Shown here in pieces: positions 5,962-24,878 of a stretch of 24,878 bases of DNA; the stretch's first letter is position 1; each line of letters starts with the position of its first letter. The DNA comes from a virus (Duplodnaviria; Caudoviricetes). Under the pieces are notes generated by a model. The model was not told the origin of the DNA. It ran no database searches and worked only from the letters and a program-made list of their open reading frames with translations. The position numbers and the translations under genes were made by a program. Location: positions 1-24,878 of IMG/VR virus record IMGVR_UViG_3300037149_000068, one strand, 5' to 3'.

Positions 5962-6369
5962 ATGCCTGAGATCGTCACCACCCACCTGACCCACATCTAC
6001 TGGGCCCTCGTCTGCCTGCTCGTGGCTGTCCTGGTCCACTTCTGGCCCACGATCAAGACGTGGTGGGCCGCCCGGGCCGCCGCGGCCGAAGCCGAGGGCA
6101 AGCGGGCCAAGGCGCTGGCGGAGCTGGCCGCCGTGGACGTCGAATCGCTGTTCAAGCGTATCGAGGACGCTTTCGATGCCAAAGTCAAGGCCCTCGAAGC
6201 CAAGGCCAAGGACATGGAGTCCCGGATCGACGCCCGGGTGGCGGCCGATGCCTTGAAGGTCGCCGCCGCAGTCGATCCGGCCACCGATCCTGCGTCCGCG
6301 CCGGCCGCGCCCGAAATCGTCACGATTCCCGCCGCCACGCCAGTGCGTTCCCTGATCCCCTCGGCCTAA
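5962..6369 (+). CDS. Membrane-anchored coiled-coil protein (lysis cassette, function unknown)
   Basis: 135 aa, GAGGAGG RBS, one N-terminal TM, Ala/Lys/Glu-rich helix. Confidence 0.7.
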   Translation: MPEIVTTHLTHIYWALVCLLVAVLVHFWPTIKTWWAARAAAAEAEGKRAKALAELAAVDVESLFKRIEDAFDAKVKALEAKAKDMESRIDARVAADALKVAAAVDPATDPASAPAAPEIVTIPAATPVRSLIPSA

Positions 6370-22855: not shown

Positions 22856-23320
22856 ATGCTATACAGTGAAGTCCGGGGCCAGATCCGCACCGGGGACCTG
22901 ATCTTCTTCCACGGGCGTGGCGCGGTCACCGACGTGATCCGCATCGCCACCAGGAGCGACTTCGCCCATGTGGCCCTGGCCTGGGTGGTGGCTGGGCGCG
23001 TCCTGGTCATCGAGGCCCGGGAGAAGGGCGGCGTCCAGATCCACGCCCTGTCCAGCCGCCTGGGCGACGGCGCGTCCTGGCTGAAGGTGCCCCCGGCCTA
23101 CCCCCTGGACCTCCCCCGGGCCATCCTGGACCTGGACAAGCCCTACTCCCTCCTCAACTGCATCCGCGCCTTCTTCGGCCTACCGGGCATCAAGAACCGC
23201 TTCGAGTGCGCCCAGCTGGCCGCCGCGGCCCTGCATCTCCCGGGGAACGGGGGCTGGACGCCACAGCAGGTTCGCGAGCAGTTCGCCGAGGTCCTGACGG
23301 TTTCCCTGGAGGAAGCGTGA
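22856..23320 (+). CDS. Permuted papain-like NlpC/P60 enzyme (YiiX/YebB-like)
   Basis: IRTGDLIFF, FAHVAL (His), KPYS and FECAQL (Cys after His, the permuted order). AGGAG RBS. Confidence 0.8.
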   Translation: MLYSEVRGQIRTGDLIFFHGRGAVTDVIRIATRSDFAHVALAWVVAGRVLVIEAREKGGVQIHALSSRLGDGASWLKVPPAYPLDLPRAILDLDKPYSLLNCIRAFFGLPGIKNRFECAQLAAAALHLPGNGGWTPQQVREQFAEVLTVSLEEA

Positions 23321-23478
23321 GGGACGTCCAGCATTCGCCGCCTACCGCCGAGCGCACCCTGCGCGCCGCCCATGCGCTCGGCGCCTGACTGCCCGCTCCA
23401 CGCAGCACCCAAGCGGAGGCCCCGGCGCTCAAGGCGACCCGGGGCCTGTGCTGTGTGGTTTCCGCAGCAGCTGCGGAT

Positions 23479-23742
23479 TCAGTCCAACTGCTCTTTGGCT
23501 GCTGGGGGATTGGCCGCAATGGCCGCGCGGATGTTTTCCTCGACGGAGGATGTATGGGCTGTATCCGCCTTTTTGATTTCCTGAATGCCCCTGAGAATGA
23601 AGTAGGGCACCCCGACGCCTGCGAGGGAAAATCCGGCCGCCGCAATCTGTTGGGGTGCTTCATGCGCTCCCATGTACATGAAGAACCCGCCGATACCGAT
23701 CGAGGCCGCGACGAAGGCATAAATGGTCCAGATGGTTTTCAT
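23479..23742 (-). CDS. Small two-TM membrane protein (accessory/moron)
   Basis: 87 aa from ATG 23742 (MKTIWTIYAFVAASIGIGGFF) with a GGAG RBS. Opposite strand to the late operon. Confidence 0.72.
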   Translation of the reverse strand: MKTIWTIYAFVAASIGIGGFFMYMGAHEAPQQIAAAGFSLAGVGVPYFILRGIQEIKKADTAHTSSVEENIRAAIAANPPAAKEQLD

Positions 23743-23798
23743 ATACAACTCCACGGTGGTGAGGGCCACGCAAACAATTGGTAACAGCGGATGCTCGG

Positions 23799-23828
23799 AG
23801 CCTACACCTGGAACCTCGCGTGTGGCAA
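23799..23828 (-). promoter_or_regulatory. Candidate sigma70 promoter for the membrane protein gene
   Basis: TTGCCA-N18-TAGGCT on the minus strand. Confidence 0.5.
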
Positions 23829-23857
23829 CCACATGTTGCGACAGGTGATTTTGCGGG

Positions 23858-23885
23858 TTGCACCGTGAAGAATCCCAATTAGGCT
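23858..23885 (+). promoter_or_regulatory. Candidate sigma70 promoter for RNA element copy 1
   Basis: TTGCAC-N16-TAGGCT. The predicted start near 23892 coincides with the 5' boundary of the repeat unit. Confidence 0.5.
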
Positions 23886-23892
23886 GGTGGTT

Positions 23893-24095
23893 GGGCTTCG
23901 AAACCCTCAACAGCCGGACCTCGCCCGTGGCGAGGACATCCCTCTCGGGATTCCGGCTGAATAGAACACCCTTCGGGGAAATAGGCTGGGCCGTAGCTGT
24001 TGGCGGTTCGAAGGTCCCGAGTCCAGGGCTGATGTATCGGCATCCTGCCGCCGCGCGGCGCTTGGCCGTCGCCCCGGTAACTGGGGCCTGGAGAA
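23893..24095 (+). ncRNA. Structured RNA-like element, copy 1 (family unassigned)
   Basis: Diverged direct repeat of 24205-24406 with multiple compensatory stem changes. G-U pairs and a cUUCGg loop favour the plus strand. Confidence 0.78.
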
Positions 24096-24204
24096 TCTAT
24101 GTCGCCACCCTGCAGGGTCAGTGGTCGTCTCATGCCAATGGTATATAATCGGGCCATAAAATAAACAATTCCCCACCGCCCGGTTCCTGACGATACTTCA
24201 TGCA

Positions 24205-24406
24205 GGGCGTCAGAACCCTGTAAGGCCGGACCCCACCCGTGGTGGGACCCCCTCTCGGGATTCCGGCCGAATACAAAACCCTACAAGGGAAATAGGCCGG
24301 GCCGTAGCCTTACACGGTCTGAACGTCCCGAGTCCAGGGCAGAACCATATGCCTGAGGACTTGAGCCGGCCTTTCCATTCGGCCCTGGCAACTGGGGTCT
24401 GGAGAA
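24205..24406 (+). ncRNA. Structured RNA-like element, copy 2 (family unassigned)
   Basis: Same scaffold as copy 1, 312 nt downstream, with stems preserved by covariation. Confidence 0.78.
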
Positions 24407-24411
24407 CGTAT

Positions 24412-24612
24412 ATGAACCACGCTTTCAGGAAGGCCACCATGGACCCTAGCGCCCATGGATGGCCGGAGGACCCACGGCTACGCATCCCCATTCTTGCCTG
24501 GGTTCTCCGTGACCCGTCCCCTTTTGCACAGAACTATGCCCGTGGGATATGGGATTCCTTCCCCCCGGAGATCCAGGAAGAGTGCAGAACCACCCTGGGG
24601 ATTCACTTGTGA
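24412..24612 (+). CDS. Hypothetical protein (66 aa)
   Basis: ATG 24412 preceded by the GGAG at the 3' end of RNA copy 2. Followed by a terminator-like hairpin. Confidence 0.5.
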   Translation: MNHAFRKATMDPSAHGWPEDPRLRIPILAWVLRDPSPFAQNYARGIWDSFPPEIQEECRTTLGIHL

Positions 24613-24774
24613 CTTTCGGATGTCACAAGTGGACCTATGGCCAGCCCGAATTCCATCCCTGAAAAGGCCATGGCATCCGGGCCTTTTGTTGTGACCCGGC
24701 TGTGACTCTTTTTAGAATCACCGTTCTAAGTGCTTTGTTTGTAATAGCAATGCAGAAGTCACAAGAAGTCACAA
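24608..24774. repeat. Six TGTGAC/GTCACA motifs, candidate integrase arm-type sites
   Basis: TGTGAC at 24608, 24690 and 24701; GTCACA at 24622, 24758 and 24768 (GAAGTCACAA twice in tandem). Adjacent to the tRNA att site. Confidence 0.65.
24662..24690 (+). terminator. Possible intrinsic terminator
   Basis: AAAAGGCC/GGCCTTTT stem followed by GTT. Confidence 0.45.
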
Positions 24775-24788
24775 ACGGGCGTCAGGGC

Positions 24789-24830
24789 AAAAAAGGGAAA
24801 GGCCCGAAACCTAATGGTTTCGGGCCTTTC
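24789..24830 (-). terminator. Intrinsic terminator downstream of the tRNA
   Basis: Perfect 15-bp stem GAAAGGCCCGAAACC/GGTTTCGGGCCTTTC with a 4-nt loop, followed by CCTTTTTT on the minus strand. Confidence 0.88.
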
Positions 24831-24833
24831 TTG

Positions 24834-24878
24834 TGGTGGCTGGATGCGGACTCGAACCGCAGACCTAGGGATTATGAG
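24834..24878 (-). tRNA. 3' half of tRNA with CAT anticodon (Met or Ile2), probable prophage att core; truncated by window end
   Basis: Reverse complement CTCATAATCCCTAGGTCTGCGGTTCGAGTCCGCATCCAGCCACCA shows the anticodon loop, the T-arm TGCGG-TTCGAGT-CCGCA and an encoded CCA. Confidence 0.92.

Follow-up and report, generated by a model that had tools for sequence, protein, structure and literature searches.

Tandem C4/CI-like RNA units with sRNA-Xcc1-type cores in the late region of a lambda-type prophage

Our analysis of a phage sequence of 24,878 nucleotides (the window; Caudoviricetes, record IMGVR_UViG_3300037149_000068) revealed a tandem pair of structured RNA units. Judged by sequence comparison, each appears to combine a seqA/IsrK-like leader with a directly adjoining core of the C4/CI type, the two variable loops of the core (a' and b') pairing with the sites a1 and b1 of its own leader. 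The units very probably function like C4/CI modules with an sRNA-Xcc1-type core. They seem to be in a detached state, having no terminator in the leader, no second target at the ribosome-binding site and no antirepressor gene. In the explanation that we favour, which could as easily prove wrong as right, each unit is a compact immunity-RNA module detached from its antirepressor and serves as the source of a trans-acting antisense RNA of 82-83 nt. The basic kind of system is already known; what is new here is that the units are detached, re-coded and arranged in tandem, and that they occur in a new host group.

The window represents the late region of a lambda-type prophage, with genes for terminase, portal, major head and tape measure proteins. 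An integrase-like (tyrosine recombinase) ORF is located directly upstream of the packaging genes (15-581), which is an unusual location; this ORF may be cut by the window start. The region of the RNA pair contains the following features:

23479-23754, minus strand: divergent gene for a small hydrophobic protein of about 87-91 aa, found beside the RNA pair in all three loci described below
23858-23885, plus strand: putative promoter of unit 1 (TTGCAC, 16 nt, TAGGCT)
23893-23943, plus strand: seqA/IsrK-like leader of unit 1, with a 3-bp hairpin, the target a1, a second hairpin and no U-run terminator
23896-23903 and 23908-23914, plus strand: target sites b1 (loop of the 3-bp hairpin) and a1 of unit 1, which covary with the core loops over six units
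23944-24025, plus strand: core of unit 1, 82 nt, a C4/CI-like three-way junction of the sRNA-Xcc1 type (RF02221, 40.5 bits, model positions 1-87)
23996-24002 and 24008-24013, plus strand: loop a' of P3 and strand b' of the same core, which also has an AAUA internal loop in P2 and a 3' UCCA
24026-24101, plus strand: variable 3' linker of unit 1, with a GGAG Shine-Dalgarno sequence (24090-24093) and AUG, and without a second a/b target
24099-24164, plus strand: ORF1, predicted, 21 codons, overlapping a conserved stretch upstream of unit 2
24192-24197, plus strand: weak putative -10-like hexamer before unit 2; xATxCT is similarly placed in all three loci (by eye)
24205-24253, plus strand: leader of unit 2, with the b1 loop (24208-24215), a1 (24220-24226) and a hairpin
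24254-24336, plus strand: core of unit 2, 83 nt (RF02221, 43.5 bits, model positions 1-87), with a code different from that of unit 1
24307-24313 and 24319-24325, plus strand: a' and b' of the unit 2 core, which ends in a 3' UCCA
24337-24612, plus strand: 3' linker of unit 2 with GGAG at 24401-24404, and ORF2 of 66 codons (24412-24612)
24797-24830, minus strand: terminator hairpin
about 24834-24878, minus strand: 3' half of a tRNA with anticodon CAT, likely the att end of the prophage

The first-pass annotation had placed the units at 23893-24095 and 24205-24406, 312 nt apart, and these coordinates were borne out, as were its compensatory double changes between the two copies, all nine of which (4+2+1+2) were found in the sequence. 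The -10-like hexamers that it reported at 23880 and 24192 do lie 7 nt 5' of unit 1 and unit 2, and TTG and TAxxxT hexamers occur, by eye, at similar positions 5' of unit 1 in all three loci; a promoter consensus scan called neither of the two window hexamers. All blocks listed there as invariant are present in the window; beyond it, AACTGGGG is absent from all four other units, and CTGGAGAA is reduced to its GGAG Shine-Dalgarno sequence. The conserved part of a unit comprises about 135 nt, while the remainder, the 3' linker, differs in length and sequence among the six units.

These six units come from the window and two independent metagenome loci, L130 (identical to L126) and L131, which carry the same tandem pair; three further records (L001, L123, L127) repeat the window sequence exactly and provide no additional information. 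The layout is common to the three loci: the divergent hydrophobic-protein gene, unit 1, a Shine-Dalgarno sequence and AUG with an ORF of 21-23 codons, unit 2, and again a Shine-Dalgarno sequence and AUG, with an ORF of 66-82 codons. The hydrophobic protein of the window is 47-49% identical to its counterparts in L130 and L131, and a longer frame containing its gene matches phrog_12304 (unknown function). The ORF1 slot comprises 21 and 23 codons in L130 and L131, and the 21-codon ORF1 of the window has no Pfam match. Behind unit 2 the slot has been exchanged: L130 (1424-1642) and L131 (1474-1719) encode similar proteins of 72-82 aa, unrelated to window ORF2, for which there is no Pfam match and, among 5.8 billion proteins, a sole, self-like match (98% identical). 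An Atlas search with the L130 ORF2 gave matches of 0.82 or less, several of them HEAT-like, which is a weak lead at most.

Several sequence elements were observed around the units. The divergent promoter region that separates unit 1 from the membrane gene contains operator-like inverted repeats, with perfect 11-bp arms in L131 (944-975) and a weaker repeat with GCAAC/GTTGC arms in the window (23822-23865). The inter-unit spacer (window 24110-24190, L130 1140-1225, L131 1180-1270) is 61-70% conserved and contains a TATAAT-like hexamer and a AAATAAAC block overlapping the 21-23 codon ORF; a promoter, a protein or both may be under selection there.

In L130, an intact CAT tRNA is found at the place corresponding to the att end, followed by host kdpE; L131 ends before that point. 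The best named relatives of the L130 kdpE are from Holophaga sp. and Mesoterricola silvestris (82-83%), and therefore the host of L130, to which this conclusion is confined, probably belongs to the Holophagae (Acidobacteriota). In a near-identical record of the window phage (G001), a satellite-like element with genes for an Arm-type integrase, an HTH_17 excisionase and Prim-Pol (L138:770-4392) is located just past the window's right end. The tRNA 5' half beyond the tRNA fragment is replaced in this record, which suggests tandem integration at one tRNA. A second 3' tRNA fragment, tRNA-Pro-like by eye, lies just before the integrase of the satellite-like element.

The first-pass annotation had proposed a covariance-model search for homologues. 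Relatives of the tandem pair do exist, namely the metagenome loci L130 and L131, and unit model R1 added none: over 93 sources, the variant units (its training set) scored 133-159 bits and everything else at most 57. Blastn of the pair yielded 24 phage records, all matching a 25-nt piece, none in plasmids and no whole-unit relative. Four variant patterns retrieved a single record from the viral collection, identical to the window; the genome collection gave two loci, both ordinary sRNA-Xcc1 modules; and the six metagenome loci comprised one identical to the window, one locus found twice, one new locus and two ordinary modules. A search anchored on the membrane-gene protein gave one new locus, L134, which has no RNA match.

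Folding of the isolated 82-83 nt core yields a C4-type three-way junction in 6/6 units. In the structure with both leader-core pairings, 96.8% of 252 cells are paired and 15 pairs are changed on both sides over the six units, a result matched by none of 500 shuffles, while slid controls were at most 51% paired; the structure was derived from the same six sequences, from three phages, so that this test is supportive and not independent. In the two pairings of b1 and a1 with b' and a', double-sided changes affect four of seven and four of six pairs. The long nested stem of the first-pass annotation reaches 95.6% paired cells and 13 pairs changed on both sides; it scores well because the leader-core pairings are common to both structures, and two pairs peculiar to it break, each in two of six units, whereas the P3 pairs formed by the same nucleotides hold in 6/6 with double changes. 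Judged on this covariation, the 'stems' that had been noticed are formed by the two variable loops of the core and their target sites in the leader of the same unit; the pairing in P4 seqA-CI is of this kind. Of two alternative folds, one contains the C-C mismatch and the bulged As described along with these stems; the other uses these nucleotides in hairpin P3.

In full-length units, other folds are computed to be 8-11 kcal/mol more stable than the closed-core form (pseudoknot energy not counted), and the long nested stem is the more stable computed fold (without pseudoknots). Copy 2 folds with z = -4.0 relative to shuffles, copy 1 with only z = -1.4. A further upstream helix, GCCGGA/UCCGGC, fits all six units with one double change and may represent an early folding state. 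Paired cells on the plus strand include 19 G-U against 1 C-A, which favours an RNA of this strand over a DNA fold. The proposal that selection acts on the structure of a phage-encoded non-coding RNA is thus supported by both the six-unit covariation and the G-U excess.

Conservation is concentrated in the RNA: the six units are 70-89% identical in their RNA part, compared with 38-65% in the 3' linker and 61% in the DNA of the adjoining gene. The leader is conserved as well as the core, and P1 with the following UCCA is invariant. These values, together with compensatory changes maintained in three phages, speak against decaying remnants of antirepressor cassettes that have lost their genes and function. 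We regard such decay as highly improbable, even if it would account for the lack of antirepressor, terminator and second target and for family scores under the cut-off.

No Rfam family matches the window at gathering cut-offs. Below them, however, both cores match RF02221 (sRNA-Xcc1) over its full length of 87 positions (E 5.8e-6 and 2.8e-5); over the six units the scores amount to 39.5-45.8 bits, under the gathering cut-off of 53. The first-pass statement that no family could be recognised therefore holds for matches above the Rfam cut-offs; it does not hold for the sub-threshold, full-length RF02221 match of both cores, nor for the layout, which is that of P4 seqA-CI. Models of C4 (RF01695), c4-a1b1 and isrK (RF01394) are absent from the 10 matches obtained up to E 10 in 23300-24878, whereas the C4 model detected phage P4 as a positive control (74.9 bits).

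Features defining these families are present in part. First, the sRNA-Xcc1 features, a full-length three-way junction and an AAUA internal loop in P2, are both present. Second, of the C4/CI features, the units have the junction of P1, P2 and P3, in which loop a' is variable and b' single-stranded, and the upstream sites b1 (within a hairpin loop) and a1, which are complements of b' and a', respectively; a downstream b2/a2 (seqC) at the ribosome-binding site was found in 0/6 units, and in place of an operon with icd/kil and an antirepressor there are ORFs of 21 and 66 codons without family. Third, of the IsrK/seqA features, the leader pairs with downstream RNA in one of two computed folds, while a model match and a terminator giving a short RNA are lacking. 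Because of the missing defining features, the units are not classed as members of C4, isrK or sRNA-Xcc1.

The first-pass annotation had also listed a riboswitch or ribozyme. We consider a riboswitch of a new class or a self-cleaving ribozyme, a double pseudoknot in which the AAUA internal loop would form the pocket or active site, very unlikely. Such a double pseudoknot is formally possible, since covariation is seen in P3 as well as in the two leader-core pairings, and an antisense model offers no explanation for the AAUA internal loop, the sequence of which is conserved throughout the sRNA-Xcc1 family. Yet no riboswitch or ribozyme class reaches the Rfam cut-off in the window or occurs among the above 10 matches; moreover, the pairings are freely re-coded as specificity loops, and relatives carry the sites twice around antirepressor genes. 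Among the options that had been named, the decoy or guide scaffold comes nearest, as the units combine a constant scaffold with two variable specificity loops.

Ordinary sRNA-Xcc1 modules were sampled from 8 of 64 parts of the viral collection (121 loci; about 1100 stretches estimated in total). Sufficient flanks were available for 113 cores, including genome and metagenome loci; 94 of them gave P1 and P3 calls and 19 were dropped. A Shine-Dalgarno sequence with a start codon is found within 75 nt downstream of 79 of the 94 (3.5 on average and at most 9 in shuffles). Pairing of the P3 loop is better with the downstream flank of its own module (mean 17.0) than with those of others (12.1), surpassing over 90% of non-cognates in 64/94; the values for the upstream flank are 17.3, 13.3 and 54/94. 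The junction strand follows the same trend more weakly (37/94 downstream, 33/94 upstream). Among 55 downstream ORFs scanned out of 78 (23 from short-flank loci were omitted), 38 are antirepressor or Rha-like, 3 match only a 'transcriptional regulator' and 14 have no match. On these counts, ordinary phage sRNA-Xcc1 cores appear to sit between target sites of this kind, upstream of antirepressor genes. A circular permutation of sRNA-Xcc1 had been considered for the units and was dropped, as ordinary members have the same upstream sites.

In the literature, sRNA-Xcc1 is treated as a regulatory or virulence-linked sRNA in the accessible portions of four sources (PMC12189769, 10.1101/2025.06.18.660453, 10.1101/2020.03.17.996009, PMC2996969), and it was mapped as a discrete 88-nt RNA in the last of them. 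The available parts of PMC11701678, PMC2864571 and PMC5737381 draw no link between sRNA-Xcc1 and C4. We found no paper treating sRNA-Xcc1 as a C4-like immunity RNA in a search that lay outside Chen et al. (2011) and the supplements of Weinberg (2010 and 2017), either of which could link them.

Some individual cores deviate from the ordinary type. Four phage sRNA-Xcc1-like cores (L018, L024, L033 and L036) score under the Rfam cut-off (35.7-44.9 bits). Three of these (L018, L024, L033) are among the cores without a Shine-Dalgarno sequence and start codon in the scan, and may be further detached variants. In L084 (about 250-325), several copies of a short repeat directly precede the internal loop of an ordinary core; slippage or an assembly artefact is the probable cause.

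In all six variant units, the leader of the same unit is the best pairing partner of the loop (with ties where a code is shared), while in no unit does the cognate loop surpass all non-cognate controls in its own downstream region. A second a/b target (b2/a2, seqC) over the ribosome-binding site was found in none of the six, and none has a U-run (TTTT) terminator in the leader, compared with an upstream T-run in 82/94 ordinary modules. The two units of each tandem pair carry different a/b codes, and the codes are reshuffled among units, one a occurring with two different b and one b with two different a. The code of unit 1 is present in two ordinary modules, L140 and L142, found by a search aimed at this code; it occurs there once in the leader and again right at the ribosome-binding site. 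These phages (44-50% GC) probably infect other hosts. No ordinary module with the unit 2 code was found in the viral collection. In the window and 6 kb beyond it (the early region lies outside the record) there is no b+a site at a start codon, and the sole loose b+a match, at 6176, falls inside a gene. Downstream of the cores, GGAG is kept 5-7 nt before the AUG in all six units, and in four of them the UCCA after P1 is complementary to UGGA of the Shine-Dalgarno region.

As the units have neither an antirepressor nor downstream target sites, they likely act on matching genes elsewhere. Under the trans-acting explanation, a lysogen would transcribe the cassette from the putative promoter 7 nt upstream. 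The precursor would fold first with its leader paired to the core, i.e., into the long stem noticed initially, as an inactive form. In the alternative fold, P1 would close over the UCCA tail and the core would be excised, probably by RNase P by analogy with P1 C4; in the part of the source available to us, C4 is described as processed by RNase P, with specificity determined by the variable loop (PMC5320573). Where an antirepressor-type gene carries b and a sites of matching code at its ribosome-binding site, the freed core could then bind them and block translation of the gene, candidate targets being the phage's own early operon, a superinfecting phage or a satellite. Several observations stand against this explanation. 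No target was found in the phage sequence examined; P1 begins with C (UCCA is present in 6/6), not with the GGW reported at the start for C4 processing in the same part of PMC5320573; without a terminator there would be no IsrK-style release of the leader from the core; and the Shine-Dalgarno sequence and AUG kept in all six units are needless for a pure trans-acting source.

The last observation leads to a cis-acting alternative, to which we assign a minor but appreciable likelihood. Each unit would switch translation of the small ORF that follows it: a same-code IsrK/seqA- or C4-like RNA of an incoming phage would refold the unit and turn on a product of 21-23 or 66-82 aa, e.g., an abortive-infection peptide, much like IsrK activating orf45-anrP. 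In Gifsy-1, according to the accessible text of PMC4825925, pairing of the leader with downstream RNA is the inactive fold, and IsrK in trans switches it to the active one. Besides the start sites, the UCCA/UGGA complementarity, the constancy of ORF1 at 21-23 codons in three loci and the visible similarity of ORF2 in L130 and L131 agree with such a switch. However, blocking the leader, blocking the loops or cutting the 5' part caused no consistent change in computed Shine-Dalgarno accessibility over the six units; window ORF2 has no relatives and is unlike the ORF2 of L130 and L131; and the start sites could be inherited from the ordinary layout, which has them in 79/94 modules.

Alternatively, the leader itself could be the active part. 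As a decoy, it would use its a1/b1 sites to titrate a C4-like RNA encoded by a resident prophage or satellite, lifting the repression exerted by that RNA, with the core only masking the decoy until it is needed. The leader is indeed conserved to the same degree as the core, IsrK, its counterpart, activates in trans (PMC4825925, in the part cited above), and a satellite-like element lies right past the att site in the near-identical record. We nevertheless judge such anti-immunity improbable: none of the six units has a terminator to free the leader, such as the T-run upstream of most ordinary modules (82/94), model R1 finds no such module in 6.2 kb of the neighbouring satellite-like element, and the invariant P1 and UCCA point to the core as the product.

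Cover by RNA libraries gives a weak hint of expression. Part of 23400-24700 is covered by eleven RNA runs, recorded as peat or permafrost metatranscriptomes, and four of them were examined; the runs were picked for this very stretch and may hold DNA, and their contigs show neither strand nor ends. Contigs contain the membrane gene in four of the four runs, unit 2 in three and unit 1 in none, which proves nothing, while 4.3 kb of tail genes are represented by one 161-nt contig. The unit 2 contigs cross both predicted core ends, so that, if they are RNA, a longer precursor or read-through exists.

RNA-based immunity like that of P1 and P4 is known from Proteobacteria; the arrangement described here extends it to what is probably an Acidobacteriota prophage, without the usual cis target and antirepressor. 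The counts for ordinary modules add evidence for a role of the widespread sRNA-Xcc1 family in phage antirepressor control and not in virulence. In the available part of PMC3632133, IsrK is equated with seqA and C4 with CI, and lambdoid copies are speculated to defend against satellites; this old speculation, that prophages carry such RNAs against other elements, becomes testable. Should the trans-acting explanation hold, the two-loop code would be a small programmable translation repressor; should the cis-acting one hold, the units would be an RNA sensor of rival phages. We suggest, tentatively and as a possibility that is on balance doubtful, that Acidobacteriota prophages turned the C4/CI switch into a stand-alone tandem guide cassette, expressed in the lysogen and silencing the antirepressors of other phages or satellites, with a constant tRNA-like scaffold and two independently re-codable loops. 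If true, this would be a minimal, protein-free, RNA-coded heteroimmunity array, the range of which is readable and rewritable in the loop code.

Among known systems, phage P4 (L137) shows the closest order of elements. In terms of Rfam it has isrK/c4-a1b1, then C4; in the sequence, b1 in a hairpin loop, adjacent a1, a terminator, and a three-way core (a', b') ending in CCA are followed by b2 and a2 over the Shine-Dalgarno sequence. The order in the window units is identical as far as CCA. The units share with P4 seqA-CI-seqC and P1/P7 a1b1-c4-a2b2 (RF01695, RF03163) this order, the pairing logic and specificity via variable loops; they differ in lacking seqC/a2b2, the terminator and a kil/icd/ant gene, and in occurring as two tandem units where a lambda-type late region borders on att. 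Compared with C4, P1 is shorter (8 bp against 17), and an internal loop interrupts P2. With ordinary sRNA-Xcc1 (RF02221), the units have in common the match to the whole model, the three-way junction, the AAUA internal loop and the Shine-Dalgarno sequence with AUG after the core; unlike in ordinary modules, the leader is fused directly to the core with no terminator, the second a/b site over the Shine-Dalgarno sequence and the antirepressor are absent, and the UCCA tail is invariant. The Gifsy-1 isrK-orf45-anrP locus (RF01394), as described in the part of PMC4825925 at hand, is similar in forming a long leader-downstream helix as one of two folds, whereas the window has no isrK match, no terminator for a short IsrK-like RNA, and ORFs that are small unknowns with no antirepressor. 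Finally, the clustered sRNA-Xcc1 copies sXF1-5 of Xylella (PMC12189769) and the multi-copy C4-like sRNAs of Acinetobacter (PMC5320573), so far as the available portions describe them, resemble the tandem pair in that several copies of an immunity-type RNA are found per mobile region or genome; they differ from it in passing the Rfam models and in belonging to Proteobacteria.
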